Shown here piece by piece: positions 3,898 to 21,478 of a stretch of DNA of 29,322 nucleotides; position 1 is the stretch's first letter, and each line of letters begins with the position of its first letter. Both the position numbers and the translations under genes were made by a program. The stretch covers positions 1 to 29,322 of the forward strand of contig JBKHIT010000061.1 in NCBI GenBank assembly GCA_046538485.1, given 5' to 3'. This stretch comes from Candidatus Brocadiia bacterium. GTDB lineage: Bacteria; Planctomycetota; Brocadiia; SM23-32. The notes beneath the pieces were generated by a model. That model saw nothing but the letters and a program-made list of their open reading frames with translations, made no database searches and had not been told where the DNA came from.

Positions 3898-3926
3898 AAA
3901 ATACATTGGTGCCGGGATAGCGTCAA
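3898..3926 (-). promoter_or_regulatory. putative sigma70 promoter of the sulfatase
   Basis: Minus strand TTGACG-17 nt-TATTTT, ~60 nt upstream of ATG 3836. Confidence 0.4.
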
Positions 3927-3981
3927 ACCGGGAAGGACGGAAGGGATTTTCGCGTTGGAGCAGGGGAGAACGCCAATGGGT

Positions 3982-4015
3982 TGTAGGTCCGCCTCGCCGA
4001 GGTGGACCTGCCGTT
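3982..4015 (+). repeat. GTAG-type REP-like palindrome (module 1)
   Basis: TGTAGGTCCGCCTCGCCGAGGTGGACCTGCCGTT; near-identical copies at 23532-23565 and 28432-28465. Confidence 0.8.
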
Positions 4016-4045
4016 TGACGAGTTTGTTGAACGCGATTGTGTAAT

Positions 4046-7000
4046 TCACTCCCCGGTGATTTCATGCAAGGCATCGGGGGCAACATCTTCGGGGAGTTTT
4101 TCGGTGACTGCGTGGATGTCCTGCAGGCACCGGACTTCCAGCTCGCCGGTCCGCAGAGCCTGCACGGCTTCGGCAGCAGCACGAGCGGCAGCGATAGTAG
4201 TGATCAACGGTAATTTGCGCTTGACGGCCTCTCCGCGGATGAAGATTTCATCGTGGCGCGGAACCGGGCCACTCGGCGTGTTGATCAAGAGGCCCACGTC
4301 ACGGCTTTTTATGAAATCGATGATATTCGGTCGGCCCTCGGAAAGTTTTGGTACTTGAGTAGTTTCTACGCCTGCGTTCTGTAGCGCTGCGGCGGTACCG
4401 GAGGTTGCGATCACCTCCAACCCCATCTCGGAGAACTGCCGTGCAACCGGCAAGACGGCTTCTTTGTCAGCGTCTTTGACGCTGATGAATACCTTTCCTT
4501 CGACCGGCAGAGTTTGGCCGGCTGCGATTTGGCTTTTGGCAAATGCACCTCCGAAAGTGTCGTCGACCCCCATACATTCGCCCGTGGATTTCATCTCGGG
4601 TCCGAGGACCGGATCGACTCCGGGGAACCGATCGAATGGCAGAACTGACTCTTTGACGGCGTAGAATTTCGGTTTTGGGTCTGCGGTTACGCCTTGTTCC
4701 TTGAGACTCACCCCGACCATGACTTTGGACGCTATCATTGCCATGGGGAGCCCGGTAGCTTTGGAGACAAAGGGAACGGTTCGGGATGCCCGGGGATTGA
4801 TCTCCAACACGTAGATCTCGTCATCTTTGACGGCATACTGAATGTTCATCAGCCCCACGACTTCGAGTTCCAACGCCAGTTTTCGGGTTTGTTCGCGAAT
4901 ACGCTCGATTATTTCCTCTTCGAGCGAGAACGGCGGTAGCACCATGGCGCTATCTCCGCTGTGCACGCCGGCCTGCTCGATATGTTCCATCACACCTGCA
5001 ACCACAACGTTTTCCCCGTCGCTGACGGCATCGACATCGACCTCGATTGCATCGTCCAGGAATTTGTCGATCAGGATGGGGCGGTCGGGCGCGGCCAGAA
5101 GAGCTTCGTTTACCATCCGTTCCAAATCTTCTTCTTTCCAGGCGATTACCATGGCACGCCCCCCCAGCACGTAGGAAGGGCGTATAAGGACCGGGTAGCC
5201 GAGTTCCCCGGCGATTTTATGGGCCTGTTTGTAGGACGTGGCTGTATCACTCGGAGCCTGCTGAAGGCCCAGTTTCTGGATGAGTTCGCGGAACAGTTTG
5301 CGGTCTTCCGCGCGGTCAATGGCCGCCGGACTCGTTCCGAAGATGTTCACACCGGCTTTGGCCAGCGGCACAGCGAGGTTCAACGGAGTCTGTCCGCCGA
5401 GTTGGACTACAATCCCTTCCGGTTCCTCGCGTTCGGCGATATTCAAAACATCCTCGTAGGTCAGAGGCTCGAAATATAAGCGATTCGAGATATCATAATC
5501 TGTCGAGACAGTTTCGGGGTTCGAATTGACCATTATGGTCTCATACCCAAGTTCCCGGAGGGCGAGTGAAGCATGCACACAGCAATAGTCAAATTCCAGC
5601 CCCTGCCCGATTCGGTTCGGCCCACCTCCCACGATAAGCGCTTTGGGTTTATCACTGGAGCGGCTTTCATCTTCGGTCCCATAGGACGAATAAAAGTACG
5701 GAGTATAGGCTTCGAATTCTGCGGCGCAGGTGTCCACGAGTTTGTAGACAGGAGTAATCCCGGCTTCTTTGCGTTTCTGTCGGATATCAACCGGTTCCGC
5801 CCCGATCAGCGACGCAATTTGGGCGTCGGAAAAACCCCTTCGTTTCGCGTGGGCGAGCTGGCGGTCGCTCAATTCTTCCTCGGATGCATGCGAGGCGAGC
5901 CGGCGTTCTTCGGTAACGATTTCTTCCACATTATGAATGAACCAGGGATCGATCCGGGTGAGTTCCGCGATTTCCTCGGGTGTCATGCCTTTTTTCAGTG
6001 CATATTTGATGTAGAACATGCGCATCGGATTCGGGCGTTTGAGGTTTTCGCGCACCGCTTCATGATCGATCTTGCGTTCTCCGATCGTATCAAGTCCACT
6101 CAGACCAATTTCGAGTCCACGTAGCCCTTTTTGAAGCGATTCTTTGAACGTGCGTCCGATGGCCATGGTTTCGCCGACGGATTTCATGGAGACCGTCAGA
6201 TCATCGTCGCAGCCCGGGAATTTTTCGAAGGTGAAACGCGGAATCTTCGTGACGCAATAATCGATCGTTGGTTCAAAACAGGCCGGCGTCTCCTGGGTGA
6301 TATCATTTGGGATTTCATCGAGACTGTAACCGCAGGCCAGTTTCGCGGCGAATTTTGCGATCGGGAAACCGGTGGCTTTGCTGGCGAGGGCGGAGGAGCG
6401 GGAGACTCTGGGGTTCATCTCGATGGCAACCATCCGCCCGTCTTCCGGGTTGACGGCGAACTGGATGTTGGATCCTCCCGTTTCCACGCCGACCCGCCTG
6501 ATGATATCGATCGCATCGTCCCGCATGCTCTGATACTGTTTGTCGGTGAGGGTCTGGGCGGGGGCAACAGTTATGGAATCGCCGGTGTGGATACCCATCG
6601 GGTCAATATTTTCAATGGAACAGATGATGACGACGTTATCGTTGTGGTCGCGCATCACCTCGAGTTCGTATTCTTTCCACCCGATGACCGATTCCTCGAC
6701 AAGTATTTCGTCGATGATGCTGAGTTCGAGCCCGAGGGTGGCGGCATCTTCAAATTCCTCGGCGTTGTAGGCTATCGAAGCGCCGGTTCCTCCAAGGGTG
6801 AAACTGGGGCGGATGAGCAGAGGGAACCCGAATTCTTCGGCGGCCTCGCGGGCTCCTTCGAGATTATGGGCGGGGCGACTTTCGGGAATCGCCACTCCAA
6901 TTTCCTGCAGCGCAGTCCGGAACAGCTCCCTGTCCTCCGCGCATTGAATGGCATCGTAGTTCGCCCCAATCATCTCGACACCGTATTCCTCGAGGTATCC

Positions 7001-7315
7001 GGCTTCTGAGGCCTGGACGGCGACATTCAGGGCGGTCTGACCGCCGAGGGTGGCCAGAAGCGCATCTGGCTCCTCCCGCTTGAGGACCTTTTGAAGAACC
7101 TCCGCCGTTATGGGTTCGAGATATGTGCGGTCCGCCATAACGGGATCGGTCATGATGGTGGCGGGGTTGGAATTGAGGAGAATGACTTCGTAGCCTTCCT
7201 CGCGAATAGCTTTACATGCCTGAGTACCGGAATAGTCGAACTCACAGGCTTGTCCGATGATGATCGGTCCAGATCCAAGAATCAAAATCTTTTCAATGTC
7301 GGTTCTTTTCGGCAT
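4046..7315 (-). CDS. carB: carbamoyl-phosphate synthase large subunit
   Basis: [30 protein letters not shown]; duplicated ATP-grasp halves ([30 protein letters not shown]); C-terminal MGS-like domain. Confidence 0.98.
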
Positions 7316-7321
7316 AGTTCC

Positions 7322-8080
7322 TCAAAGTCTGACGTGAACATTTCTTTGAGCGAGGTACGACTTGACCTCGCTGACACTGTATTCTCCGTAGTGGAATATC
7401 GATGCTGCGAGAGCGGCGTCGGCCTGACCTTCTGTGAGCACTTTGAAAATATGTTCTGGTCCCCCGGCGCCGCCGGAGGCGATCACAGGGATCTCAACGG
7501 CTTCTGAGATAGCGGCGTTGAGCTCGATATCATATCCCGTTGTTTGTCCATCTGAATCGATGGATGTCAACAAAATTTCGCCGGCTCCGTATTCTTCCAC
7601 GTGGCGCGCCCAATCGACCGCCTTGTGCTCAGTCGGGGTCCGGCCGGATTCAACATAGACCTCCCAGCCGCCGTCGTCGGAGCGTTGTGCATCGATTGCT
7701 ACAACAATGCACTGACAGCCGAAACTTCGGGAGGATTTTTCGATCAGTTCGGGGCTGCGCACGGCGGCCGTATTGATTGAAACTTTGTCGGCGCCGGCGC
7801 TCAGCAGCTGGTTGATGTGTTGTTCGCTGCTGATTCCACCACCGACCGTGAAGGGAATGGAAATACACTCTGCGATCCGGGTAACCAGCCCGCGAATCGT
7901 CTCGCGGGCCTGGAGGGTAGCCGTGATATCGAGAAAAACGAGTTCATCAGCGCCTTCTTTGCTGTAGGTCGCCGCGCACTCCACCGGATCACCTGCGTCA
8001 CGCAGCTGTCCGAACGAGATACCTTTCACAACCCGGCCGTTTTTGACGTCGAGACAGGGGATGATACGTTTGGCTAACAC
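7322..8080 (-). CDS. hisF: imidazole glycerol phosphate synthase cyclase subunit
   Basis: [61 protein letters not shown]. Confidence 0.97.
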
Positions 8081-8083
8081 AAA

Positions 8084-8695
8084 TCAGTCCTCTTCACAGA
8101 GGCAGCAAAAATTCGAAAGCATTTTCAGTCCGACGGCGCCGCTTTTTTCGGGGTGAAACTGGGTACCAAAAACATTGTCCCGGCTGGCCACCGAAGTGAA
8201 CGTCCGTCCGTAATCAGTAGACCCCACACTGACTTCTGATTCAGCCGGCAAAGTGTAGTAGGAATGCGCGAAATAGAAAAACTCGCCGGATTCAATATCC
8301 TCAAAAAGAGAGCAGGCGGCGGTCTGGTCGACCTGATTCCAGCCCATATGCGGGACTTTCAGTCCGCGCTCAAACCGCACAACCTGGCCCGGCAGCAGAT
8401 TCAGACCCCCATGGCGACCGTGTTCTTCGCTTTCGGAGAACAACAGTTGGTGCCCGAGGCAGATCCCGAGCAACGGCCGCCCGGAATCGGCGAACTGACA
8501 GACGACATCGTCGAGTCCCCTCTCCCGCAACTGGTCCATGGCGGGAGCAAAAGCGCCGACGCCGGGCAGTATCAAACCGTCTGCGCCCTGCAGCAGTGAA
8601 GGATTATCGGTCAACTCGGCATCCCGCTGCAATCGTCTCAGGGCAAAAAGCACACTGCGGATGTTCCCCACATCATAATCGACCACCGCGATCAT
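8084..8695 (-). CDS. hisH: imidazole glycerol phosphate synthase glutaminase subunit
   Basis: [27 protein letters not shown] (catalytic Cys), [14 protein letters not shown]. Confidence 0.96.
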
Positions 8696-10299
8696 CTCTC
8701 GCTGCTCCTTTCGCCTGCGGCCCGGACAAAATCCCGGAACAGAGGGTGGGGATTTGTTGGGTAAGACTTGAATTCAGGATGGAACTGGGTCGCCAAGAAC
8801 CAGGGATGGTCTTCCAATTCCAGAATTTCGACGAGATCCAGCTCGGGGTTTATTCCGCTGAAGACCATTCCGTTTTCTTTGAAGATTTGCCGGTAGTTGT
8901 TGTTGAATTCATAGCGATGTCTGTGCCGTTCTTGAACCTCTTCGGCCTGGTAAGCCTCACCGGCACATGTGCCGGGCTGGAGTGTACAGGGCTGTGCGCC
9001 AAGACGCATCGATGCGCCTTTTTGAGTGACCTCCTTCTGTTCTTCCAGCAGACATATGATTCTATGTTCTGTGTTTCCGTTAATTTCGGTGGTGTCGGCG
9101 CCTTCCAGTCCGCAGACGTTCCGTGCAAATTCAATGGCGGCGCATTGCAGGCCCAGACATAAGCCAAGAAAGGGGATATTGTTTTCCCGGGCGTATTTTA
9201 CCGCTTCAATTTTCCCTTCCACGCCGCGCGAGCCAAATCCGCCCGGCACCAGGATTCCGTCGGCGCCGCCGAGAGTGTCTTCGGGTCCGTTCTCCTGGAC
9301 GTCTTCGGAGAGAACTTTTCGGATATTTATTCTGGCTTCGTTGGCAGTACCGCCGTGTTTGAGGGCTTCATAAATCGATTTGTAGGCGTCCTGAAGCTCC
9401 CCATATTTGCCAACGACCGCCACCTCCACTTCCGATGTGGGGTTCAGCATCGTTTCGAGAATGTCCGGCCAGGGGCCCAGATCGAGTTCTTTGGCGGGCA
9501 GATCAAGTCTATCGATTATCAGTCGATCAAAACCTTCATCCAGAAATATGAATGGAACTTCGTAGATAGTCTGATCGACGTCCGGTTCCTCGATGACGGC
9601 TTTTTTCTCGACGTTACAAAAGAGGGAGATTTTGTCTTTTGCGGATGCGGTCAGCGGCTTTTCAGTCCGGCAGATGATGGCGTCCGGTTCGATCCCCAAT
9701 TCGCGAAGCTTTATGACCGAGTGTTGCGTTGGCTTGGTTTTAATCTCCTGCGCGGCCCGGATGTACGGTACAAGCGAAACATGGACATACATTGCGTTGT
9801 CACGGCCTTCATCAAGACGGATCTGGCGGATGGCTTCGAGAAAAGGCAGCCCTTCAATATCACCAACAGTTCCGCCGATTTCACTGATGACGACATCGAC
9901 TTCCGGTGAGACGAGGCGCCGCACGCAATCCTTGATCTCGTCTGTGACGTGGGGGATGAGCTGGATGGTCTGTCCAAGATAGTCGCCTTTTCTCTCTTTC
10001 GTCAGGACGGACCAATAAACCTGTCCGGACGTGAAATTGCAGTTCTTATGGGTGGGCTCGCCTGTGAACCGCTCGTAGTGGCCGAGATCGAGATCGGTTT
10101 CCTCACCGTCTTCGGTTACATAGACCTCTCCATGTTGGTAAGGATTCATCGTGCCCGGATCGACGTTCAGATATGGATCGAATTTTTGCAGTTTAATCCG
10201 GAGTCCCCAGGCTTTGAGAAGCATGCCGATCGAGGCGGCGGTAATCCCTTTCCCCAGCGAAGAGACGACACCGCCGGTGACGAAGATAAATTTTGTCAT
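8692..10299 (-). CDS. pyrG: CTP synthase
   Basis: [60 protein letters not shown]. Confidence 0.98.
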
Positions 10300-10332
10300 T
10301 TTTTGCGCTTTTAGTGACAGTAGTACGGGATT

Positions 10333-11448
10333 CTACGTTCGGTTGTCTTTCATCATATCTTTGAATTCCTGGAACAGGTGCTGTGCATCGTGCGGACCGG
10401 CCGAAGCTTCGGGGTGGTACTGAACACACATTATGGGCATGTCTTTGTGCCGCAGTCCTTCCAGTGTCTTATCATTGAGATTCTTGTGGGTCAGCTCGAT
10501 TTGATCCTGATCGAGTGAGTCAATATCGACGCAGAAACCGTGATTCTGACACGTAATATCGATTTTCCCCGTTGTAAGGTCTTTCACCGGGTGGTTGGCC
10601 CCGCGGTGACCGAATTTCAGTTTATAAGTTTTGCCCCCGAGGGCGAGACCGAGGAGCTGGTGGCCGAGACAGATGCCAAAAATCGGTTTTTCTCCGAGAA
10701 GCTTTTGGAGCTCTTCCACAACGTAGGGAATTCCCGCCGGATCTCCCGGCCCATTTGAAAGCATGATTCCATCCGGATCTATGGCCTGCACGTCTTCAGC
10801 TTTGGTGCTGGCAGGAACCAGTGTGATATGGCATCCGGCTTCGGCCAGGCAGCGAAGAATGTTGTATTTTGCACCGAAATCATACACCACAACCCGCGCA
10901 TCGGCGGAATCCGCACGGGGGCTGCCTTCCCACTCGTAGGGTTTATCGCAGGTGACCTCTTTCACAAGATCGCGACCGATGAGCCCCGGCGCCTGGCGTG
11001 CGCGTTCAACGAGATCGTCACGTTCGAACTCGCCTGCAGCCAGCGCCGCCCGCATGGCGCCGGCCTCGCGGATATGACGTGTCAGAGCCCGCGTATCTAC
11101 TTCGCTGAGGGCGACGATATCGTGATCTTTCAGGTAATCTCCGAGTTGCCCCTGGGACTCGTTATTGGAGGGGTAGGGACAGTATTCTCTGACGATAAAT
11201 CCTTCGGCCTTTGGAGCTGCGGATTCGATATCCTGGCCATTCACTCCATAGTTTCCGATCAGGGGGTAGGTCATTGTGACGATCTGGCCTTTGTAGGAGG
11301 GATCCGTCAGAATCTCCTGGTAGCCTGTCATGCTGGTATTGAAAACGACTTCACCGGTTTTTATCCCGGGTGCGCCGAAGGATTCCCCTTCCAGGAAGAA
11401 GCCGTCTTCCAGGGCGATAGCCCCGCGGGGCGGCATGTTTTGGCTCAT
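10333..11448 (-). CDS. carA: carbamoyl-phosphate synthase small (glutaminase) subunit
   Basis: GEVVFNTSMTGYQEILTDPSY, LSNGPGDP, FGICLGHQ, FGHRGANHPV, QYHPEA. Confidence 0.97.
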   Translation of the reverse strand: MSQNMPPRGAIALEDGFFLEGESFGAPGIKTGEVVFNTSMTGYQEILTDPSYKGQIVTMTYPLIGNYGVNGQDIESAAPKAEGFIVREYCPYPSNNESQGQLGDYLKDHDIVALSEVDTRALTRHIREAGAMRAALAAGEFERDDLVERARQAPGLIGRDLVKEVTCDKPYEWEGSPRADSADARVVVYDFGAKYNILRCLAEAGCHITLVPASTKAEDVQAIDPDGIMLSNGPGDPAGIPYVVEELQKLLGEKPIFGICLGHQLLGLALGGKTYKLKFGHRGANHPVKDLTTGKIDITCQNHGFCVDIDSLDQDQIELTHKNLNDKTLEGLRHKDMPIMCVQYHPEASAGPHDAQHLFQEFKDMMKDNRT

Positions 11449-11533
11449 GAGTGCCTCTCAAATTATGATTGTCACTTTTTTGTTGAACTTTTATGCGGAA
11501 GCAAACGGCCACGAGTCTGTTTCAACCGGGGCT

Positions 11534-12340
11534 TTACCAGTTTCGATAAATTTCGGGCAAAGTTCGTTTGTGTTGCGCTTTTTCGATCATAGATCGCACT
11601 TTTTTAACAGCGTCGGGATCAGCCTGTGGTTCACGGCCGGTCTGCAATGCATCAACGATTTCGTCGATCACGTCGTAACTGAGCCCGATTTCACTTTCGT
11701 CTGTTTGACCCGGCCAGAGCCCGGCGCTTGGCGGTTTATTGATTACAACTTCCGGAATGCTCAGTTCCCGGGCCAGTTCCCGGACTTCTGATTTAAGGAG
11801 TCCGCCGATCGGCAGAATATCGGCGCCGCCATCGCCGTATTTCGTGAAATATCCCAGAGCCAATTCGGTCCGGTTTCCTGTTCCGGCCACAAGGTTGTTG
11901 CGAACGTTGGCAAAGAAATAGAGGGACGTCATCCTCAATCGCGGTTTTATGTTGGCTCGCGCGAGACTCGAGTCTTCTTCCGGGAGCTGCTCGAGAAAAT
12001 CCTGGTAAATTTTATCGAGCGAGACCGTTTCGGTTTGAACCCCGAGACTATCGGCAACCAATTGCGCGTGTTCGGTGTCCTGGTGTTCGCTTTCACAGGG
12101 CATTATTATTCCCAGGCTTTCATGACCGACGGCGTTTTTCGCGAGACCCAGCACCACGGCCGAATCAACGCCACCGCTCAGGCCAACGACAATCCCTTCC
12201 GCACCGGCTTCGCGCGTTTTCTGTTCAAGCCAGTCCGCGATTTTTTTTGAGATGGCTGTAAAATCCCTTTTTGTCGGATTTCTGGAAATCAAGTTTATTT
12301 TTGAACCGCGCACTCCTTTTTTCAGGTTTTGAGAGCCCAT
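11534..12340 (-). CDS. nadE: NH3-dependent NAD+ synthetase (no fused glutaminase domain); start uncertain (12340 or 12355)
   Basis: GLSGGVDSA PP-loop, ANIKPRLRM, GTGNRTE..LGYFTKYGDGG, KPPSAGLWPGQTDE; ~270 aa. Confidence 0.93.
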   Translation of the reverse strand: MGSQNLKKGVRGSKINLISRNPTKRDFTAISKKIADWLEQKTREAGAEGIVVGLSGGVDSAVVLGLAKNAVGHESLGIIMPCESEHQDTEHAQLVADSLGVQTETVSLDKIYQDFLEQLPEEDSSLARANIKPRLRMTSLYFFANVRNNLVAGTGNRTELALGYFTKYGDGGADILPIGGLLKSEVRELARELSIPEVVINKPPSAGLWPGQTDESEIGLSYDVIDEIVDALQTGREPQADPDAVKKVRSMIEKAQHKRTLPEIYRNW

Positions 12341-12383
12341 TTCATTTCTCAGCATTAGAGTATAGCGGATTTCTGCCGGCTCG

Positions 12384-13904
12384 TCAGGTCTTCCGCTCCA
12401 GGGCCTCGCGTCGCATGTCGTTGTCGACTGATACGGGATAATTTCCCGTGAAGCACGCAAGGCAATATTCGCTTCTCTCTGCCTGTGCTGCTCCCAAAAG
12501 ACCTTCCACAGTTTGATATCCCAGTGAGTCGACGCTGAGGAAGTCCGCGATTTCACTGACCGAACGCCGGGCGGCAATGAGCTGTTCGGTATCGGGGAAG
12601 TCGATGCCGTAGTAACAGGGATGCCGAATCGGCGGGGCGCTGATTCTCATGTGCAGCTCGCGCGCACCCATCTCCCGCAGCATCGAAAGACGTCCGCGGC
12701 TCGTCGTCCCGCGCACGATTGAGTCGTCCACCACCACCAGCCGTTTCCCTTTAACGACATCTTTCACGACGTTAAGTTTGATTTCGACGTGGTCGCTACG
12801 ATTTTCTTCCGGCGGGATTATGAAAGTCCGGCCAATGTACCGGTTGGAAATAAAGCCGAAATCGAGGGGGATGCCGGACCGACGCGAATATCCTAATGCG
12901 GAAGAATCTCCGGAATGCGGGATGCTCATCACGAGGTCGGCTTCCACAGGATGGGTTTCGGCGAGTTTTTCCCCCAACCGGAGACGGACATTGTGGACCG
13001 TCCGGCCGAACACGCGGCTGTCGGGTCTGGCAAAATAAATATGCTCGAATATACACCGCGCCTGATTTTCCGGAGGGGAGGCGACAAACTGCCAGGAACG
13101 TAACCCGTCATCGTCAATGCATACGATCTCGCCCGGTTCGATATCACGAATATATTCCGCCCCGAGCAGATCAAACGCGCACGTTTCGCTGGCAACGACG
13201 TATCCGCTGCCGAGTTTGGCCAGAGAAAGCGGTCGGAATCCTTGGGGGTCGCGGGCCGCCATCAGACGCGAGGAAGTCATCATGGCAAGGGAATACGCGC
13301 CCCGGACGTGATGCAACGATTCGCCGAGTGGGTCGGCCACGCCGATGTGTTCGGGGTCGGCCAGCAGATGGACGATAATTTCGCTGTCGGTCGAGGTCTG
13401 GAATATGGAACCGCGCGATTCATACAGTTCCCGAAGCGACCGGGCATTGGCGAGGTTGCCGTTGTGAGCGACCGCCACGATCCCCTGGGAGTATTCAATC
13501 ACCAGAGGCTGGATGTTCTGGACCCTTTTGGCACCGGTTGTTGAGTAACGGGTGTGGCCGACGGCGATGTGGCCCGGGAGGTTCTGAAGGTCTTTGTGCC
13601 CTATTGCCTCCGTGAGAAGTCCCAGACCTTTGGCGCTCTGGATTTGCCGACCGTCGGAGGCGACAATGCCGGCCGATTCCTGCCCCCTGTGCTGAAGGGC
13701 GTGGAGACCGGCATGGGCTTTTCGAGCGGCGTTGCTGACCCCGTAGAGGCCAATGACCCCGCAATGGTGACGGAGCTCGGAGCCCCGGGCGTCAGAAGTT
13801 CCTACCGATCCGCTGTCTGCGGGTCGAGAGCTACAGAATGAACAAGAAGAACAGCGAACCATATTGGGCTTTGCTTCCGTTTCCAGAACCTGGGGATTAT
13901 TCAT
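12384..13904 (-). CDS. purF: amidophosphoribosyltransferase, [4Fe-4S] (B. subtilis-like) type with long propeptide
   Basis: Ntn start HHCGVIG, LQHRGQESAGI, GHTRYST, HNGN, PRT motif VVVDDSIVRGTT; Fe-S Cys in RCIFE, HPCYYG, YCLACF; AGGAG just upstream of the ATG. Confidence 0.96.
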   Translation of the reverse strand: MNNPQVLETEAKPNMVRCSSCSFCSSRPADSGSVGTSDARGSELRHHCGVIGLYGVSNAARKAHAGLHALQHRGQESAGIVASDGRQIQSAKGLGLLTEAIGHKDLQNLPGHIAVGHTRYSTTGAKRVQNIQPLVIEYSQGIVAVAHNGNLANARSLRELYESRGSIFQTSTDSEIIVHLLADPEHIGVADPLGESLHHVRGAYSLAMMTSSRLMAARDPQGFRPLSLAKLGSGYVVASETCAFDLLGAEYIRDIEPGEIVCIDDDGLRSWQFVASPPENQARCIFEHIYFARPDSRVFGRTVHNVRLRLGEKLAETHPVEADLVMSIPHSGDSSALGYSRRSGIPLDFGFISNRYIGRTFIIPPEENRSDHVEIKLNVVKDVVKGKRLVVVDDSIVRGTTSRGRLSMLREMGARELHMRISAPPIRHPCYYGIDFPDTEQLIAARRSVSEIADFLSVDSLGYQTVEGLLGAAQAERSEYCLACFTGNYPVSVDNDMRREALERKT

Positions 13905-14157
13905 ACTCCTGACAGCTCAGCACTTTCCGGTTGGGTTTCGTGAAACGGCATGCCCGGCGCTTTCCGCAGTTCCGACACAGACCGATCCCGGTATCTCCAT
14001 GGGATCTGGAAATGCCGTTGGCGGGAGTGCGACTTGTCGATCGGCCAGCGCGGGTTTCAAAAGGCTGGAATTCTTTGCACGTCAGCACCGCCGCGTGCCC
14101 ATTCCTGTGGAGACACTCCGGTGATTCGGTGCAACTTTTGCAGAGAAGGTATTGCAT
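13897..14157 (-). CDS. small Cys-rich hypothetical protein, two CxxC-x5-C-x11-C-x-E[FY] repeats
   Basis: 86 aa; purine-rich RBS AAAAAGGGG; overlaps the purF start; two identically spaced 4-Cys units. Confidence 0.8.
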   Translation of the reverse strand: MQYLLCKSCTESPECLHRNGHAAVLTCKEFQPFETRAGRSTSRTPANGISRSHGDTGIGLCRNCGKRRACRFTKPNRKVLSCQEYE

Positions 14158-14200
14158 AATTTTTCCCCTTTTTATGTGTAAAACCTGCGAATATATGCTT

Positions 14201-15799
14201 CTATCCGCGGATTATTTCCATGGCTTCCTCGCGGTAGGCATTCTGGATATAAGGCAGTCCCGTGATCTCGGCCGCTTCGTTTGTGAGGGCCGCCAGGTCT
14301 TTCCGACTGATGGCTTCAATGTTGAAGTTCCTCGAACCGGCCATCAACTGCTGGAGACCGACTTTCAGTTTGTCGACGAAGGTGTACATGGCAATGGCGC
14401 CAAGAGGCATTTCTTTGACCGTATCTTCCCCGAACTCATCGCAGAGATCTTCGTAGTCAAGGAATATTTGTTCCGGTCTATCTCCATGCTGTTTGATGGT
14501 TTTCGGCAAATCCTCGCCGTTCTCCAGCCAGTTTTCCAGGTTTTTCCCCACCATCCCCGGGATCATAATCGCGCGCCCCATACATACGGCTTTGAAGTAG
14601 GGCGCTCCGAGTGCCAGCACTTTGAAAATGTGGTCTTCGGTTGAGAGCCCACCGGCCATGGCAAGGTCCGGCACATACGCGTCCTGGTCGTCGAGTTCCC
14701 GGGCAAGTTCACAGGCCATGGATTGCAGGTAGATGGTTGGAATACCCCACTCGTTCATCATGCGCCAGGGGCTCATGCCGGTTCCACCGGGCGCACCATC
14801 AATCGTCACAAGATCGAGTTTGGCGTCGGATGCCCATTTGAGAGCCATAGCAAGTTCACGCATCGGGTATGCTCCCGTTTTCAGCGTGACGCGTTTGGCC
14901 CCCAGATTGCGCAGGCGTTCGACTTCAGCGTGGAATCCTTCTTCATCAACAAAACCAAGACGGGAGTGCCTTTCAAAGTGCTTAATTTCACCTTCTTTGT
15001 AGGCTTTTTGATGGGACGGAGACGAAGGATCGGGTGTTACCAGATATCCTCGATCCTGCAGCTGGAGGGCGCGATCCAGGTTGTCGATCTGAATCTCACC
15101 CCCGATGCATTTCGCGCCCTGACCCCACTTGAGTTCGATTGTTTCGACACCCAGTTCTTGAATAGCGTATTCGGCAACCCCCAGGCGCGTGTCTTCGACA
15201 TTCATCTGGACGATCAGGTCGCCATAGCCGTTGTGAAACTTCCTGTAAATCTCGACACGATGACGCATCTCGGGGGATTCGACCAGTTTGCCGTTTTCAT
15301 CGCGTTCCAGTTGCGGGTCGACGCCGCAGACGTTTTCTCCGCAGACGAGTGTGATGCCGCTGATAGCGGCGCCCACGGCGAAATGGTCCCAGTTTTTCGC
15401 GGCGACTTCGGTTGAACCCAGAGCCCCGGTAAAAACAGGGGCCTGCATCCGAACTTTGTCATTGCCCGCACCATACTCGGTTTCGGTATCAATATCGGGG
15501 AAAAGAGTGGTATTAGGTCCAGCCTCGGCTCCTTCAGGCAGTCCGCGGGCCCCCATAGCGTAACCCATGATGTTGAGATGCGAATAATCGACCGGATAAT
15601 CTTTTTCGGCTCCGGCCGTCATGCTCCCGAATGGCCCCGGATAAAGAAGCTCGCGACCTCGCATGGACGCCTGAAAGACGTCACAATTGCCGCGGCATCC
15701 GTCAACACATCGGGTGCAGATTCCCGATTGTGGCACGACATCCCGACTTCTATTTCGTGTACCCGTTGCTTCGTTTGAGTTAGGTTGCTGCAAATTCAT
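14201..15799 (-). CDS. stand-alone FMN-binding glutamate synthase family protein (GltB domain 2-like, archaeal/anaerobe type)
   Basis: IELKWGQGAKCIGGE, DLVTIDGAPGGTG, EWGIPT, AMAGG....IFKVLALGA; N-terminal CTRCVDGCRGNC; RBS GAGGAG. Confidence 0.9.
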   Translation of the reverse strand: MNLQQPNSNEATGTRNRSRDVVPQSGICTRCVDGCRGNCDVFQASMRGRELLYPGPFGSMTAGAEKDYPVDYSHLNIMGYAMGARGLPEGAEAGPNTTLFPDIDTETEYGAGNDKVRMQAPVFTGALGSTEVAAKNWDHFAVGAAISGITLVCGENVCGVDPQLERDENGKLVESPEMRHRVEIYRKFHNGYGDLIVQMNVEDTRLGVAEYAIQELGVETIELKWGQGAKCIGGEIQIDNLDRALQLQDRGYLVTPDPSSPSHQKAYKEGEIKHFERHSRLGFVDEEGFHAEVERLRNLGAKRVTLKTGAYPMRELAMALKWASDAKLDLVTIDGAPGGTGMSPWRMMNEWGIPTIYLQSMACELARELDDQDAYVPDLAMAGGLSTEDHIFKVLALGAPYFKAVCMGRAIMIPGMVGKNLENWLENGEDLPKTIKQHGDRPEQIFLDYEDLCDEFGEDTVKEMPLGAIAMYTFVDKLKVGLQQLMAGSRNFNIEAISRKDLAALTNEAAEITGLPYIQNAYREEAMEIIRG

Positions 15800-15906
15800 T
15801 CAAGCGCTCCTCTTAATCGATCAGAAAAAAGTGATTTTGTTCGCGTAACTCCGCTGCACAAATATTGATCAAAGTGGATATCCTAATTACCGCACAGTTA
15901 TAAATT

Positions 15907-15922
15907 TGCAAACCGTGTGCCG
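15907..15922 (-). promoter_or_regulatory. sigma54 (-24/-12) promoter of the glutamate synthase/amidotransferase operon
   Basis: Minus strand CGGCAC-ACGGT-TTGCA against consensus TGGCAC-N5-TTGC(A/T), ~110 nt upstream of ATG 15799. Confidence 0.85.
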
Positions 15923-16035
15923 ACTCTGTAATACGCGGGGTTAAGAAGCGGGATAAATATCACAAATCGCTGCTTAAAAAGGCTTTACATGAAGAGCATG
16001 CGATTGTTGCCCGAGCCGCTACTCCAGATGAGGCC

Positions 16036-16070
16036 TGCGCAAAATGTGTGCAGTGATCTGTAACTGTGCA
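16036..16070. promoter_or_regulatory. putative enhancer (UAS) pair for a sigma54 activator
   Basis: TGCGC-AAAATGT-GTGCA (16036-16052; NtrC-like TGCAC-N7-GTGCA) and TGATC-TGTAACT-GTGCA (16054-16070), 115-150 nt upstream of the -24 box. Confidence 0.55.
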
Positions 16071-16221
16071 TTGTCTGGTTGGCGGCGCTGGCGGCAGGTG
16101 CGATTCGGTCGGGGCGGGAAATGGCGAATCAGGTGGTCAGGAGCCGTGCGGGGGGGGGCTGCGGATTCTCCCCCGGGGTGGCACACAAAAAGGCACATGC
16201 ACAAAAACGGCACTGGGCAAT

Positions 16222-16250
16222 TTGACACAGACGTTCCAGCGAGGTACTAT
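16222..16250 (+). promoter_or_regulatory. sigma70 promoter of glutamate dehydrogenase
   Basis: TTGACA-17 nt-TACTAT, 80 nt upstream of ATG 16331. Confidence 0.7.
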
Positions 16251-16330
16251 ATTTTGACTTTAGCCAAATAAAATGGGATCGGTGATGATTCAGGTGATTC
16301 CGAGCAAATCTGGCGATAGGAGTGTTGTTT

Positions 16331-17578
16331 ATGGTATTTAACCCTTTCAAAATGGCGCAGGATCAGTTGGCTGTTGCGGCGGAGAAACTGAATTTAGATG
16401 CGGCGGTTCACGAGTTTTTGCGGTGGCCGTTGAGAGAATTGTGGGTGACACTGCCGGTAAAAATGGATGATGGGTCGACGGAAATTTTTCGGGGTTTTCG
16501 TGTGCAGTACAACGATGCCCGAGGTCCTTGCAAGGGCGGCATCAGGTTCCATCCAGAAGAAACTATTGAAACAGTACGGGCTTTAGCCGCCTGGATGACC
16601 TGGAAGACAGCTGTCGTTGATATTCCCCTGGGCGGAGGCAAAGGTGGAGTGGTTTGCAATCCGAAAAAGATGAGCCGGAACGAACTTGAAAGATTAAGCC
16701 GCGCCTACATACGGCAGGTTGGCCGGATTGTGGGTGATCACAAAGACGTGCCGGCTCCGGATGTTTACACGGATCCGCAGATTATGGGCTGGATGATGGA
16801 CGAGTACGAAGCAATGAATGGGGGGCGTCATGAACCGGGCATGATTACGGGGAAACCGATCCCACTGGGGGGTTCATTAGGGCGTGGCGATGCGACGGCA
16901 CGGGGCGGCTGCTACATCGTCCGCGAAGCAGCGAAATCGCTCGGTATTGATACGAAGGGATCAACGGTTGCGATTCAGGGGTTCGGTAACGCCGGTCAGT
17001 ACGCTGCTCTGCTGGCGGATTCGATACTTGGCTGTAAGATTATCGCCGTCAGCGACAGCCGTGGTGGTATTATCAACGAAGATGGTTTTGATTCCGAAGC
17101 TCTTGTGAAGCATAAGCTCGACACCGGAGCCGTGGGAGATTTTCCGGAATCGGAACCAATCACAAACGAGGAACTTCTTGAGCTACCGGTTGATATACTG
17201 TTCCCCGCGGCGCTGGAAAATGTGATAACAAAGGACAACGCTCCTGAAATCAACGCCAAAATATCATGCGAATTGGCGAACGGCCCACAAACCCCGCAGG
17301 CCGACGAAATCCTTCATGAAAATTCAGTGCTGTTTATCCCCGATTTCCTGGCGAATGCAGGCGGAGTGACAGCCAGTTATTATGAGATGGTTCAGAATAT
17401 CACAAACCATTACTGGACGGCCGATGACGCGAATGCGGAACTCGATCAGAAGATGACAGCTGCTTTCCACACGGTCTATCAGGTCGCCCAAAACGAAAAC
17501 GTCCACATGCGCCTGGCTGCTTATATGGTTGCCGTGGAACGCGTAGCAGAGGCCGTCAAACTCCGCGGGTGGGTTTGA
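16331..17578 (+). CDS. gdhA: Glu/Leu/Phe/Val dehydrogenase, most likely glutamate dehydrogenase
   Basis: RGPCKGGIRFHP, MTWK, LGGGKGG, DVPAPD, ITGKP..LGGSLGR, QGFGNAG, PDFLANAGGV, LRGWV; RBS AGGAG at 16318-16322 favours ATG 16331. Confidence 0.93.
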   Translation: MVFNPFKMAQDQLAVAAEKLNLDAAVHEFLRWPLRELWVTLPVKMDDGSTEIFRGFRVQYNDARGPCKGGIRFHPEETIETVRALAAWMTWKTAVVDIPLGGGKGGVVCNPKKMSRNELERLSRAYIRQVGRIVGDHKDVPAPDVYTDPQIMGWMMDEYEAMNGGRHEPGMITGKPIPLGGSLGRGDATARGGCYIVREAAKSLGIDTKGSTVAIQGFGNAGQYAALLADSILGCKIIAVSDSRGGIINEDGFDSEALVKHKLDTGAVGDFPESEPITNEELLELPVDILFPAALENVITKDNAPEINAKISCELANGPQTPQADEILHENSVLFIPDFLANAGGVTASYYEMVQNITNHYWTADDANAELDQKMTAAFHTVYQVAQNENVHMRLAAYMVAVERVAEAVKLRGWV

Positions 17579-17585: not shown

Positions 17586-19913
17586 TTAGTGCTGGGAAAT
17601 CCCTAAATCCTTGATTTTTCTGCGCACAGTATTGCGGCTGACCCCGAGTTCTTCCGCCGCCTTCGTCTGGGTAAAGTCTGTACTTTCAAGCACCTGCTGA
17701 ATCAGTGATCTTTCGACCCGAGACATGATTCTATCGTAAAGATTGTGTTTGGTGCCGGATTCTCGGAGGCTTTTCACCAACCGAGGAATGACGTCCTCGG
17801 GTTCACCAACAATATCCTTGCTGCGACGACCTTCCGGCAGCATGCGAATGTTGATGGGGAGTAGTTTCAGGGGGATTGTGCCGGTCTGGGTCAGGACAAC
17901 AGCTCTTTCGATACAGCTTTCCAGCTCTCGGACATTCCCGGGCCAGGAGTATTCCATGAATGTGTCCAGAACTTCGCGGGATATTTTGGAAACATCTTTG
18001 TCATACTGTTTGCTGTATTTCTCCAGAAAGTGATCGACAAGGAATGGAATGTCATCGGTACGCTCACGGAGCGGAGGGATAAAAATCGGGATGACGTTGA
18101 GGCGGTAAAATAGATCTTCCCGGAAAGTCCCTTTGCTCATGTGCTCTTCAAGATCGACATTTGTCGCGGCAACCACGCGTACATCCACGCTTATTGTTTT
18201 TGTTCCGCCGACTTTTTCGAATTCTTTTTCTTGAAGAACGCGCAGCAGTTTAACCTGTAGGCGTTCGCCTATGCTTCCGATCTCGTCCAGGAAAATCGTT
18301 CCTTCACCGGCGAGTTCAAAGCGCCCTTTGCGATTCTCGATGGCTCCGGTGAATGCTCCTTTCACGTGTCCAAACAGTTCACTTTCCAGCAGGTTCTCCG
18401 AAAGTGCGCCGCAGTTGACCTTGACGAAGGGGCCGTCTGATCGGTCGCTGTTGTAATGGAGCACGCTCGCGATCAGTTCCTTCCCCGTTCCCGTTTCTCC
18501 CTGGATGAGAACGTTGGCATCGCTTTTGGCGACGGTCGAGGCCGTGGCCACAACATCCTGCATGGTCCCGCTGGCGGCAACGATGTTGCCGAATTTGTAC
18601 TTCGATTCCAGATCTTTTCGCAGCCGTAGATTCTCAGCGACAAGCTCTTCCCGTTGCACCATCACCATCCGGTTAATTTTGATGGCCTGGCTGACCAGCG
18701 AGGCGATAATTTGCAGGAGGCGTTGGTCCTTGGCGAGAGTCTCTTCGTCCACAAATTCCCTGTCAACGCTGATCGCTCCAACAATTTCTTCGTCGACCCG
18801 AAGGGGAACGCAGACGAAGGAAACAGGACGACCTTCTTCCGTCCGACCGCGTGCACCTGTCCTGTTCAGAAAAAACGGGTCTTTGCTTATGTCCGCGATT
18901 GAAAGCGGTTGACCGGTTTCGACGACCCGGCCGGTGACGCCTTCTCCGATTTGATATTCTCCCCGTTCTTTTTCCGTAACACTCAGGCCATGGGCGGCTT
19001 CGATCTTGAGTCGACCCGATGACGGATCACGCAGCACAAGGGTTCCTCTCTTCAGTTTTAGTTCGCGTGCCAGGATATCCATCGTTTGCTCAAATACCCG
19101 TTCCAGCTCAAGTGCTCCGCCGATGGCATCCGACATCTCGCTCAGGACGGATAGCTCAAGTTCTTCTCGATGGGCGGGGGCAAACTCAAGTCCGTCTTCT
19201 GCGATGACGAAACGTTGTGGGATTCCAATACGTGGTGCTGCACGTCCCTCGCATTTTTTCAGTGCGACTGTGGCCTCTCCTTCTTCCACAGAGAGTTCCA
19301 GAACTACCTGAGTAATGTGCCGCAGGTTGGCCAGCAGCTGGCCCGAATGAGCTTCCCGTTCCAGAATCCAGTAGGCGACCGTGTTAAGATCGTAAAGGCG
19401 TGGACACATGTACGCGAAGAAATTGAGTGCCTGACGCTCTTCGTCCCATAATTCCAACATGCCCGTAATGCTATCAAAAACATAAAAAGGATTGTTGCCG
19501 GCCTCCCGCTCAAGTTCTTCCAGCGATTCAGAAACCTGGTCCGGATCGGGAGACGGGCAGCGTGCCACCGTTTTAACGGACGATTTCTGGGAATCCCCGC
19601 CGCCGTTGTAGAAATCGGAAAAAACTTTATCTCCCGATCCTTTGCCGCCCGTAAAGCAATCCAATAAAAGAAAATTGTCTTCCGGGAGCGTATCTCCATA
19701 CTTGGTCAGAATTGCGTTGGGAGACCTGTTAAAACTCACGTATATGACAGGTCTTTGGGATTGTTGAGAACTCCCAAAAAGGTTGCGGATAAAAACGCTT
19801 ATGGGAGCTCCGCTGTCGATTTCCCACACCACGTTATCGCCCGGCCGCAAAGAGCCGATCAGCCGGTCTATTTGCTCTATCCCGGTGCTCAAAAATGTGT
19901 CATGTCTACTCAT
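17586..19913 (-). CDS. sigma54-dependent activator: degenerate KaiC/RecA-like N-domain + GAF + AAA+ + Fis-type HTH (NifA-like C-terminal two thirds)
   Basis: [74 protein letters not shown]...FLNRT; N-terminus [22 protein letters not shown]...YVSF...VFDSITG. Confidence 0.92.
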
Positions 19914-20563
19914 ATTTGTGCTTCCGAAAAGAGATCATGTCGAGCCAAACCGTATTATTCTAAGAGAAATAAAGTTGTTAAGAAAGCGAGTGAGTGCTTT
20001 TTCTGCTGGTGTAGTGTCAAAGAAAGTGGGATTTCAAGCCGGTTTTGCGGGCTTCGGCCATTTGCAATAAAAAGGATACATCGGCTGATTCCACTTGTTT
20101 TAAGAAAAACCAGAAGTGCGACTGTTCCTGGAGAGTATTCGTCTCTGTAACTTGCATGATGTTTGAGCAGCCGCGATCAGAGGTAGATCAAATCGCGTTC
20201 AGGAGTTGCGTATTCATGAGTAAGAAAAACTGATTCCCGGGTGTGGTTGAGGACTTTGAGGGGTTTTCTCGGGTGAGTGATTATGTTATTTGTTCGGAGG
20301 GGATTTCGGCATCCAAGGAATTAATGTGATCTTTTCTACCTGGAGTTTTGGTCGAGAAGAGCGGTGAACGGTATTCAGTAGACATACAGCTACAGGACTG
20401 GGTATGATGGTCTAAACTGCCCGTAGGATCAGGCAGGGAATCCCCTCTTTCGCCACCAGAGTCTACCTTGACGGGGAGGTATAATGGCGGTAGCCTATTG
20501 ATAGTTGAAATCACAGATAGGCGTAAAATTGTTTTTGCAATTTGCAGAGGGGAGGAAATAAAA

Positions 20564-21478
20564 ATGTGGAACTGGCTGGCTATAATCTTGCTTATCGTGG
20601 GGGCGGTTGCCGCAGTAGTGAAAGGAATGAATGAAGATCGGCCATGGGGTGCTCCCGTTCTCGGAGCGTGTATCGTAGGGATTATATTGGGGCTTATCAG
20701 TCCGACCGTTTTGTATTATTACATTCTGATTGCTCTGCTTGTGGGGGCGCTTGTCGGGTATGTCAAAGGACATCAAAAGAAGAAAGAATGGGGTGCGCCT
20801 CTTATCGCGGCCTGTACCATTGCGATTATCGTGATGGTTCTGGGAAATCAAGTTGTTCCGGAAAAAGCAGCCGCCAGGAAGGAAGTAAAGCAGGCCCACA
20901 GAAAACAGATTCTCTACGATCAGGCGAAAATGCAGTATATCGGAGAATATATCGAAAAAAATTATCCCGATCACAAAGTGCTTCTGCTGATGCATTATGC
21001 GGGCAGGGATTTTGCGAAAAAGCGCCAGAGCGCGATGATAAGCGCATTGAAAAAGGGATTTGGCGATGATGTCACACTGGAAGCTCAGGAACATATGCCG
21101 GTGCCGGAAGGGGATCCGGACGACCCGATGATGATGATGGAAGAGCCTATACTCACCCGGGAAAAATTCGATCAGATAACTAAACCACATCCTGAATGCG
21201 ATTTCATTATCTCCATTATTGGTCTTCCTTATGAGTACGAAAAAACGGCTATCTGGCAGATGCCGCCGGAGAAAAGGCCAAAAATTTTTGTTGCGTCTTC
21301 CCTTAGAGAAGATCTTCTTGAAAAGGCAATGAAAGACGGACCTGTGGTGGGCGCGGTTGACACGAAAAGGGATTTTCGTTTCAATCCCCAGGCTTCAGTG
21401 CCAGCAGATTACAAGGAAGCTTTCGAGCAAAGATGGAAGATTGTTGATAAGGAAAATTTGAGTGAGCTGAACCCGTAA
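20564..21478 (+). CDS. hypothetical membrane protein (4 TM helices as a duplicated hairpin + soluble alpha/beta domain)
   Basis: RBS GGAGG before ATG 20564; four hydrophobic segments with repeated KG..x..WGAP(V/L)..AC motif. Confidence 0.8.
   Translation: MWNWLAIILLIVGAVAAVVKGMNEDRPWGAPVLGACIVGIILGLISPTVLYYYILIALLVGALVGYVKGHQKKKEWGAPLIAACTIAIIVMVLGNQVVPEKAAARKEVKQAHRKQILYDQAKMQYIGEYIEKNYPDHKVLLLMHYAGRDFAKKRQSAMISALKKGFGDDVTLEAQEHMPVPEGDPDDPMMMMEEPILTREKFDQITKPHPECDFIISIIGLPYEYEKTAIWQMPPEKRPKIFVASSLREDLLEKAMKDGPVVGAVDTKRDFRFNPQASVPADYKEAFEQRWKIVDKENLSELNP

Follow-up and report, generated by a model that had tools for sequence, protein, structure and literature searches.

A 29,322-nucleotide (nt) stretch of DNA from Candidatus Brocadiia bacterium (assembly GCA_046538485.1, contig JBKHIT010000061.1), referred to here as the window, encodes a 775-residue protein in which a KaiC-like domain precedes the output part of a NifA-like, σ54-dependent activator. 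The locus raises the question of what such a protein senses and which genes it controls. The genome (5.19 Mb, 88.3% complete) and related loci in other bacteria point to nitrogen assimilation. We consider it probable that the protein is a one-component σ54 regulator of this process with a dead KaiC fold as its input domain, and that it activates the operon of a neighbouring glutamate synthase-like (gltS-like) gene, probably together with the glnA-glutamate synthase (GOGAT) and amt-glnK genes of the same genome.

The regulator and its KaiC-like N-terminal domain

The gene and the domains of its product were assigned as follows (coordinates are those of the window; aa, amino acids).

17586..19913, minus strand: regulator gene, 775 aa, with pseudo-KaiC N-domain, GAF, σ54 AAA+ and Fis-type helix-turn-helix (HTH) domains (open reading frame (ORF) and Pfam)
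19164..19913, minus strand: pseudo-KaiC N-domain, aa 1-250 (AlphaFold2 model, Foldseek/VIA-align, KaiC profile alignment, conservation)
18681..19109, minus strand: GAF domain, aa 269-411 (PF01590, E 4.6e-17)
17841..18581, minus strand: σ54-interaction AAA+ domain and lid, aa 445-691 (PF00158, 239.6 bits; PF25601, 91.8 bits)
17607..17720, minus strand: Fis-type HTH_8 domain, aa 732-769 (PF02954, E 2.3e-13)

Within the AAA+ region, the Pfam family Sigma54_activat covers residues 445-610 (E 1.9e-71, 239.6 bits versus a cut-off of 20.2) and AAA_lid_14 residues 616-691. The Walker A and B motifs and the GAFTGA motif can be read in the translation, and the output module looks intact at this level. 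The best NCBIfam model was nifA (TIGR01817), to which residues 252-772 aligned end to end (model positions 2-529 of 534) with 501.7 bits, short of the cut-off of 528.85; the first-pass annotation of this DNA, which had placed a NifA-like GAF-AAA+-HTH module behind the N-domain, is borne out. The ntrC model (TIGR01818) scored 356.2 bits (cut-off 558.6). NifA, AnfA and VnfA consist of GAF-AAA+-HTH only, and NtrC uses a receiver domain. Since the Pfam scan found no Response_reg domain in the protein, it is not an NtrC. An rpoN gene is present in the genome (contig C84, 206.4 bits), so that the attributes of a bacterial enhancer-binding protein come together here: an AAA+ domain with GAFTGA, an HTH domain, σ54 itself and, as described below, a -24/-12 promoter in front of a plausible target gene.

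The structure of aa 1-250 was modelled with AlphaFold2 from an alignment of 53 N-domain rows (A1), giving a predicted local distance difference test (pLDDT) score of 91.4 and a predicted template modelling (pTM) score of 0.90. Foldseek returned PH0284 (2dr3; E 3.4e-14, template modelling (TM) score 0.75) as top match, followed by Sso2452, KaiC and FlaH. VIA-align, a structure search independent of Foldseek and run over 48,161 chains, likewise found PH0284 (Z 23.1, root mean square deviation 2.6, 217 residues aligned), and further Sso2452 (2w0m; Z 21.8), KaiC (Z 21.4 for 9ofh, and 20.6), PH0321 (Z 19.6), Elp456 (Z 19.6) and FlaH (Z 18.6), with DnaB, RadA and Rad51 at lower ranks. In sequence searches, residues 9-211 gave a sub-threshold match to the KaiC family PF06745 (19.3 bits when the entire protein is scanned, 15.1 bits for the isolated domain; cut-off 26.6), a cut-off that some homologues pass (P0123, 34.6 bits; P0074, 33.3; P0025, 34.0). 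Searching PDB sequences with the N-domain as a single sequence yielded nothing meaningful (best E 0.078, a peptide deformylase); a profile of 13 N-domain sequences matched KaiC chains at E 4.1e-12.

In the profile alignment, 'weidsgtaae' sits on the KaiC Walker A motif 'SGTSGTGKTV' (in this protein 'EIDSGAPIS' on 'GTSGTGKTV'), 'FnrsP' ('FNRSP' here) on the catalytic 'FEESP', 'lllDC' on 'ILDA', and 'ryvfDslTgm' (here with 'YVFDS') on the Walker B segment 'RVVIDSITAI'. The Walker A lysine and both catalytic glutamates, located after strand 2, are gone, and the Walker B aspartate D147 is retained. Because of this alignment, the N-domain is taken to be a true KaiC homologue without P-loop lysine or catalytic glutamates. 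Model and alignment together confirm the predicted KaiC/RecA-superfamily fold with a presumably dead active site, which the first-pass annotation had recognised from KaiC/RAD55-like segments and a Walker A position lacking GKT.

Conservation of the domain is strong. Across the 53 sequences 28 positions are invariant, many of them polar, including G25, N27, S60, S64, P65, D85, F87, G90, K91, G92, Y144, D147, S148, T150, G151, W156, C170, P171, W182, E185, H189, H199, Q202 and R224; N62 is almost invariant, and a conserved D or E precedes SG at the P-loop position. Such conservation despite the loss of catalytic residues points to selection for a non-catalytic function. A complex prediction with two copies of the N-domain scored 0.00 (mark 0.42), which is evidence neither for nor against self-association.

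The N-domain is present in a single copy in its own genome. It is not unique to this protein, a point missed by the first-pass annotation, and belongs to a large family with many output domains. A word-indexed search returned 562 proteins at E<=1e-3 with lengths of 426-1357 aa, and an exhaustive search of 50%-identity representatives gave 498 at E<=1e-3, among them 236 with E<=1e-10 and 45 with E<=1e-30. Of these, 148 newly returned representatives (P0121-P0268) were aligned to the hidden Markov model of the domain. Every representative that covers the site carries a 'GDNVVW'-type motif, a few with minor substitutions, and none has a P-loop. A second motif, the 'DCFTxGKG' loop, is limited to the branch with HTH or σ54 outputs and is absent from the PPDK_N, kinase and GGDEF branch.

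Thirty-six members were scanned by Pfam, and in all except P0207 the module is N-terminal. It is followed by (i) an XRE-type HTH domain (about 312-355 aa in total) or XRE-HTH plus cupin (about 432 aa); (ii) GAF-σ54-HTH (about 770 aa) or σ54-HTH without GAF (602-608 aa); (iii) a Ser/Thr kinase, GAF-ANTAR, two kinds of histidine kinase, PilJ-HAMP-PAS or PAS-GGDEF-EAL; (iv) PPDK_N, in 11 members (about 600-912 aa). Unrelated outputs behind the same N-terminal module are the pattern expected of an input domain; by sequence, this bacterial pseudo-KaiC input domain is widespread and occurs in many output types. PPDK_N is the ATP-grasp domain of phosphoenolpyruvate/pyruvate dikinases, and the proteins fused to it form a large branch (P0202, P0203, P0207, P0211, P0237, P0249, P0251, P0258, P0262, P0264, P0267), mostly of about 600-900 aa (range 505-1484), from which the GKG loop is missing.

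No Pfam family owns the domain: when 13 members were compared with Pfam at E<=1, KaiC was touched by eight, PAXNEB/Elp4 by five and DUF7090 by five (best 5.8e-4). For DUF7090 the present protein reaches 15.7 bits (cut-off 27) and P0039 reaches 28.3. In the Atlas, the domain comes closest to clusters of archaeal RAD55/KaiC-like proteins that contain DUF7125, DUF7504 or DUF7090 (score 0.95). Public names of homologues include 'sigma 54-interacting transcriptional regulator', 'Nif-specific regulatory protein' (many, by JGI) and 'XRE-family HTH / KaiC/GvpD/RAD55 family ATPase'.

Promoters, a shared upstream box and nitrogen genes

The genes next to the regulator and the predicted control elements between them are the following.

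14201..15799, minus strand: gltS-like gene, encoding a 532-aa divergent member of the flavin mononucleotide (FMN)-binding glutamate-synthase family (PF01645, 61.6 bits)
16322..17578, plus strand: glutamate dehydrogenase gene (gdh), likely ATG at 16332 (PF00208, PF02812; GdhA_Arch, 615.8 bits)
15908..15921, minus strand: σ54 -24/-12 promoter cGGCACacggtTTGCA; the gltS-like start codon follows about 108 nt downstream
16036..16052, no strand assigned: candidate enhancer (upstream activating sequence), a box with the perfect palindrome TGCGCA-N5-TGTGCA; the σ54 promoter lies about 115-130 nt downstream of it
16179..16213, plus strand: cluster of related GGCAC / TGCACAAAAA repeats beside the -35 element of the gdh promoter, with 9-mers shared with the amt-glnK upstream region
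16222..16250, plus strand: σ70-like promoter candidate of gdh, TTGACA-17-TACTAT (consensus scan, 10/12)
19954..19981, minus strand: σ70-like promoter candidate of the regulator gene, TTAACA-16-AATAAT (consensus scan, 10/12)

The gdh gene is convergent with the regulator gene and divergent from the gltS-like operon, an arrangement also seen in a related locus, L004. The first-pass annotation had pointed to the intergenic region between gdh and the gltS-like gene as the place where the regulator should bind, and this region indeed contains both the σ54 promoter (15908-15921) and the candidate enhancer (16036-16052). The promoter is the sole exact match to GGCAC-N5-TTGC in the window. When one mismatch was allowed, 11 matches were obtained versus 6.8 expected, and for this reason only the exact, well-placed site carries weight. 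The palindromic box is likewise a single match (0.21 expected). Equivalent σ54 promoters precede the gltS-like gene in L004, L006 and L007, with boxes upstream of the promoter at -131 in L006 and -135 in L007 and two boxes 209-254 nt upstream in L004; L005 has the box and no promoter match at the stringency of the scan.

For gdh one σ70-like site was found versus a mean of 1.1 in shuffled sequences, so that it is the position that speaks for it; for the regulator gene, two sites versus a mean of 0.6 are weak evidence. A σ54 promoter for gdh was sought and rejected: none was found, the GGCAC repeats at 16179-16213 lack -24/-12 spacing, and the σ70-like site fits. The repeat cluster is a possible second binding region.

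The same design recurs elsewhere in the genome. On contig C87 (7047-11594, minus strand), a cluster of glnA, a GATase_2 gene and a Fer4/FMN GltS gene lies behind a perfect TGGCAC-N5-TTGCA promoter, and on contig C80 amt and glnK lie behind a σ54 promoter. A half-box, TGCRCAAAAWGTG, is common to the upstream regions of the gltS-like operon, the glnA-GATase_2-GltS cluster and amt-glnK, where it stands 113-134 nt from the σ54 promoters. It has five exact copies in 5.19 Mb, three of them at those promoters; the other two (C26, C67) were set aside as chance-like, no gene matching a nitrogen-gene query being found within 5 kb. The genome contains two PII genes and two glnA genes, and one of the PII genes is the one beside amt behind box and promoter. 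The C87 cluster has the form of an archaeal-type split GOGAT beside glutamine synthetase (GS). Its glnA upstream region and positions 15800-16050 of the window also share GCATGCTCTT, at about -80 and -94 in opposite orientations, and TGTGATATT, at about -43 and -57; a bending protein or an additional regulator may bind at these 9- to 10-mers. Public sequencing runs comprise six DNA runs from two studies, with no RNA run listed; two of the DNA runs contain at least half of the sequence words, and one of these two is possibly the source.

To place the locus in context, one genome per species was scanned, which gave at least 599 pattern matches, of which 556 were confirmed; the locus counts given here refer to the best 80 loci. 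Their labels are Brocadiia, Sedimentisphaerales, Phycisphaerales, Pirellulales, Verrucomicrobiota, Kiritimatiellia, Nitrospirota, Thermodesulfovibrionales, Acidobacteriota, Armatimonadota and Desulfobacterales. According to tblastn with the window proteins, 22 loci encode the GAF-σ54 type, 11 a σ54 type without GAF, and 47 a short or other type, mostly XRE-cupin proteins of about 423 aa plus a few genes truncated by contig ends.

A homologue of the 532-aa gltS-like gene was found within 6 kb in four of the GAF-σ54 loci (L004-L007, the closest relatives, with 46-63% N-domain identity) and in 33 of the short-type loci. In 31 of these 33 it lies directly downstream on the same strand; in L080 it is on the opposite strand and in L070 at +4.8 kb. 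Counted over the short-type loci with at least 1.5 kb of downstream DNA the share is 33 of 37, since 10 of the 14 loci without the gene have less than that. None of the 11 σ54-only loci has the homologue within 6 kb. By such adjacency counts no neighbour of pseudo-KaiC regulators is as conserved as the gltS-like gene. It is a probable direct target of the regulator. Atlas clusters of its product bear the name 'FMN-binding glutamate synthase family protein', and the protein has no match among PDB sequences. The agreement with L004 extends to gene order (regulator, convergent gdh, gltS-like gene, purF, carA, pyrG).

From 12 loci without the 532-aa homologue, 73 neighbouring ORFs were surveyed by Pfam, and nine of these loci contained other nitrogen genes. 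A set of FlpD, in part an MTHFR-like protein, a divergent Glu_synthase protein and a Fer4-Glu_synthase protein is encoded downstream of the regulator in L009, L012 and L022 (GAF-σ54 type) and in L029, L034, L041 and L048 (σ54-only type), with an ammonium transporter gene upstream in addition in L029 and L034. GSIII, NadE and a full-length GltB are encoded downstream in L024, and in L039 (XRE type) the regulator gene is preceded by gdh in divergent orientation. Homologues are thus linked to glutamate synthase-like genes, gdh, GSIII-GltB and amtB across phyla, in keeping with the nitrogen role that the first-pass annotation had assumed, and gene content makes a strong case for a nitrogen link of pseudo-KaiC regulators whatever their output type. 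The recurrent operon of the seven loci (roughly +2 to +7 kb, counted from the start of the regulator gene; MvhD-like FlpD, MTHFR-like protein, Glu_synthase protein of about 480 aa, Fer4-Glu_synthase protein of about 533 aa) resembles an unusual glutamate synthase-type complex with electron-transfer partners in the style of heterodisulfide reductase.

Promoters were also searched within 500 nt past the regulator stop codon on the same strand (TGGCAC-N5-TTGCW, at most one mismatch, GG and GC fixed). Thirty σ54-type loci have 500 nt or more of sequence beyond the regulator; a -24/-12 match was present in 16 of them, where about 0.02 per locus are expected.

Proposed mechanism and competing explanations

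In the mechanism that we propose, the Fis-type HTH domain would bind the palindromic box at 16036-16052 and the regulator would from there activate the σ54 promoter at 15908-15921, leading to expression of the gltS-like gene and perhaps of the amidotransferase genes behind it. The glnA-GOGAT and amt-glnK genes would probably be activated through the same combination of box and promoter, and the divergent gdh promoter may be affected, too. The dead KaiC-like domain would report nitrogen status, either through a metabolite in its remodelled nucleotide pocket or through a docked partner protein, and would gate the AAA+ ring, either in its assembly or in its ATPase activity, in the manner of other N-terminal sensor domains of this activator class. 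The input domain is tied to nitrogen assimilation in this proposal because the module is conserved, stands N-terminal to diverse outputs, and lies beside glutamate synthase, GS, gdh or amt genes regardless of the output.

Several observations weigh against this proposal. The exact 17-bp box had at least one match in 18 of 100 shuffles and is weak evidence alone, and the three promoters at which the half-box is counted also served to define it, its rarity elsewhere and the fixed spacing being the independent part. Fourteen of the 30 σ54-type loci have no promoter match within 500 nt downstream, 18 of the 22 GAF-σ54 loci are without the 532-aa gltS-like gene, and in three of the 12 Pfam-scanned loci (L013, L020, L031) no clear nitrogen genes were found. 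Each of the best 80 loci comes from a metagenome-assembled genome, so that no physiology is attached to the relatives. Within the phylum the domain is rare and patchy, occurring in five of 121 sampled genomes, the present one included. Finally, five activators with a receiver (REC) domain are encoded in this 88%-complete genome, any of which could read the shared box.

The suggestion of the first-pass annotation that the regulator could replace NtrBC stands in part. It is consistent with the regulator's own genome, where no REC-type activator reaches the NtrC cut-off and where glnA-GOGAT and amt-glnK show the same design; as a general substitute for NtrBC in the phylum the protein does not qualify, because the domain occurs in so few of the sampled genomes.

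An extension of the proposal, which we hold possible if somewhat doubtful, is that the GDNVVW domain reads nitrogen status directly, by accommodating glutamine, glutamate, 2-oxoglutarate or PII in its pocket, and thereby defines a family of one-component nitrogen regulators and a wider input module. If true, σ54-type members in Planctomycetota, Verrucomicrobiota, Kiritimatiellia and Acidobacteriota and XRE-cupin-type members in Nitrospirota and Thermodesulfovibrionales would take the place of NtrBC in lineages whose nitrogen control is virtually uncharted, and the wider family would constitute a general input module for kinases, cyclic di-GMP enzymes and PPDK-like enzymes.

Among the alternatives, the one that survives best concerns the extent of the regulon: the regulator may control the adjacent gltS-like operon only, with the box at glnA and amt-glnK being read by another, NtrC-like REC-type activator. 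We judge this rather unlikely. The genome encodes nine proteins with strong Sigma54_activat matches, namely the present protein, five REC types, one with PAS, one with FHA-GAF and one with an unassigned N-terminus. One of the REC types has an adjacent PAS-HisKA kinase, and the shared box resembles the enterobacterial NtrC site. None of the five, however, reaches the NtrC equivalog cut-off (best 419.7 versus 558.6 bits), the kinase is most similar to AtoS (NtrB, 121.5 versus 240), and in L004, L006 and L007, too, the box lies close to the gene of the pseudo-KaiC regulator.

A second alternative, unlikely in our view, takes the pseudo-KaiC domain as a protein-docking module whose partner, PII (GlnB/GlnK) or the gltS-like protein acting as a trigger enzyme, carries the nitrogen signal. 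Proteins of the KaiC family act as interaction hubs and inactive ones, for example Elp4/5/6, as scaffolds, and some NifA proteins are controlled by PII via their N-terminal domain. The structural similarity to the Elp456 pseudo-ATPase scaffold (Z 19.6), the two PII genes, one of them beside amt behind the same box and promoter, and the constancy of the gltS-like neighbour fit this idea. The adjacency of the enzyme gene is equally well explained, though, if that gene is a regulatory target, and loci without the 532-aa enzyme, in Acidobacteriota and Kiritimatiellia, still have the domain.

It is improbable that the domain binds nucleotide in a non-canonical manner, for instance with the invariant G90-K91-G92 as a relocated lysine, and reports energy charge (ATP/ADP). 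D147, S148 and the GKG loop are kept in the subfamily with HTH or σ54 outputs, and the fold is otherwise complete; yet the P-loop position is occupied by a conserved acidic residue in place of Gly-Lys-Thr, N-R replaces the catalytic glutamates, and the GKG loop is absent from the PPDK_N, kinase and GGDEF branch.

That the N-domain is a scaffold serving only oligomerisation or stability and leaves sensing to GAF, the situation in NifA or NorR, is quite improbable. The C-terminal 520 residues are NifA-like throughout, GAF included (501.7 bits), and GAF domains are established sensors of this activator class (PMC2941729). Relatives in Acidobacteriota without GAF nevertheless keep both the N-domain and the nitrogen neighbourhood, and XRE types also lack GAF, so GAF cannot be the sole sensor; moreover, the motifs of the pseudo-active site are among the best conserved positions.

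An ordinary NifA controlling nif genes elsewhere in the genome, a reading favoured by the best NCBIfam match and by the JGI name of many homologues, was rejected as extremely improbable, given a score below the nifA cut-off (501.7 versus 528.85 bits), the additional 250-aa domain ahead of GAF, the lack of any match to the nitrogenase component-1 homologue PF00148 in the 88.3%-complete genome, and the absence of nif genes from Pfam scans both of the window, as the first-pass annotation had already stated, and of the neighbours in the 12 related loci.

Remaining genes of the window and comparison with known systems

Behind the gltS-like gene, whose activation by the pseudo-KaiC regulator we favour, two further features belong to the same stretch of minus-strand genes.

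13897..14157, minus strand: 86-aa Cys-rich ORF between the gltS-like gene and purF (tblastn conservation in related regulons)
4046..13904, minus strand: same-strand run of mostly glutamine-dependent amidotransferase-pathway genes, purF, nadE, carA, pyrG, hisH, hisF and carB (Pfam)

The 86-aa ORF has two CxxC-type pairs and belongs to no Pfam family. With tblastn it was detected after the gltS-like gene in L004 (E 3e-10) and, by partial matches, in L005 and L006; in Acidobacteriota (L029, L030, L034, L045 and L047) it is the ORF that directly follows the regulator. On this conservation it is likely to be a real small protein of the regulon. Together with the gltS-like gene and this ORF, the run, which is unusual, spans 4046-15799 on the minus strand, all behind the σ54 promoter. 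Neither a terminator nor a σ70 promoter was found at 13650-14260, and the amidotransferase genes are possibly co-transcribed with the gltS-like gene; parts of their order recur in L004, L006 and L007. The gene at 12384-13904 was considered as a GATase II subunit (class II glutamine amidotransferase) of glutamate synthase and ruled out, as its product is PurF (477 bits to 1gph/1ao0).

The nitrogen cluster is flanked by genes for a hybrid PAS histidine kinase with receiver and two sulfatases (510-2423, plus strand; 2442-4049, minus strand; 21629-23005, plus strand). Sulfatases are typical of genomes of the Planctomycetes-Verrucomicrobia-Chlamydiae (PVC) group. Adjoining the upstream region of the regulator is a 336-aa ORF (20468-21478, plus strand) with hydrophobic N-terminal segments and sub-threshold DUF matches only. 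A 1349-aa ORF at 24032-28081 (minus strand) has no Pfam match at E<=1e-3; a long ORF overlaps it on the opposite strand, and its coding strand is putative.

Nitrogen control is textbook knowledge for Proteobacteria (NtrBC/PII), Firmicutes (TnrA/GlnR), cyanobacteria (NtcA) and some archaea (NrpR). Much less has, to our knowledge, been charted for Planctomycetota, Verrucomicrobiota, Acidobacteriota and Nitrospirota, where it is mostly unexplored although these phyla dominate many soils, sediments, mats and nitrifying systems. One conserved module with two DNA-binding outputs, located beside glutamate synthase, GS, gdh and amt genes in those phyla, is a candidate nitrogen regulator for them, and the window supplies predicted promoters and an operator for it. 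The locus also draws notice to an uncharacterised FMN-binding enzyme of about 530 aa of the glutamate-synthase family as the most constant presumed target of such regulators.

A full-text literature search returned no KaiC- or RAD55-like domain on a σ54 activator or XRE-cupin regulator, nor a link of such a domain to glutamate synthase; Makarova et al. 2017 was outside its reach. The portion of a discussion of Planctomycetia σ54 regulons considered here makes no mention of this architecture (PMC12316311).

Compared with NifA-type activators, the protein has the same GAF-AAA+-HTH arrangement over residues 252-772, with GAFTGA, Walker motifs and a Fis-type HTH domain; it differs in its score below cut-off, in the pseudo-KaiC domain before GAF and in having gdh and gltS-like genes, not nif genes, as neighbours. 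With NtrC (NR-I) it shares the probable σ54-dependent activation of glnA, amt-glnK and glutamate synthase genes from a palindromic site about 110-135 bp upstream, but it has no receiver and no partner kinase, and its input would be direct instead of by phosphorylation.

The N-domain, in turn, resembles the KaiC/RAD55 ATPases (PH0284, Sso2452, FlaH/ArlH) in fold (Z 18.6-23.1), profile homology and the Walker B Asp, whereas the family lacks the Walker A Gly-Lys-Thr and the catalytic Glu pair and consists of bacterial fusions to transcription and signalling domains. Elp4/5/6 of Elongator likewise combine a RecA/KaiC fold without ATPase motifs with use as a scaffold; they are, however, eukaryotic, form a tRNA-binding hetero-hexamer and have no tie to transcription factors or nitrogen genes. 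The closest parallel in concept are archaeal inactivated KaiC-like ('iKaiC') domains, KaiC-like and without ATPase motifs, which are reported to be fused to signal-transduction domains (PMC5847659, citing Makarova et al. 2017). In sequence the relation to them is sub-threshold, the present protein falling outside DUF7090 (15.7 versus 27 bits), and the family described here differs in being bacterial, in its GDNVVW signature, in its σ54-AAA+, XRE-cupin and PPDK_N partners, and in its link to nitrogen. We rate as new the input domain on an otherwise known class of σ54 activators, to whose input-domain classes it adds one, and the bacterial, nitrogen-linked branch of the known idea of dead KaiC domains; it would form a bacterial counterpart to the archaeal concept of KaiC-like signalling hubs, dead members included.

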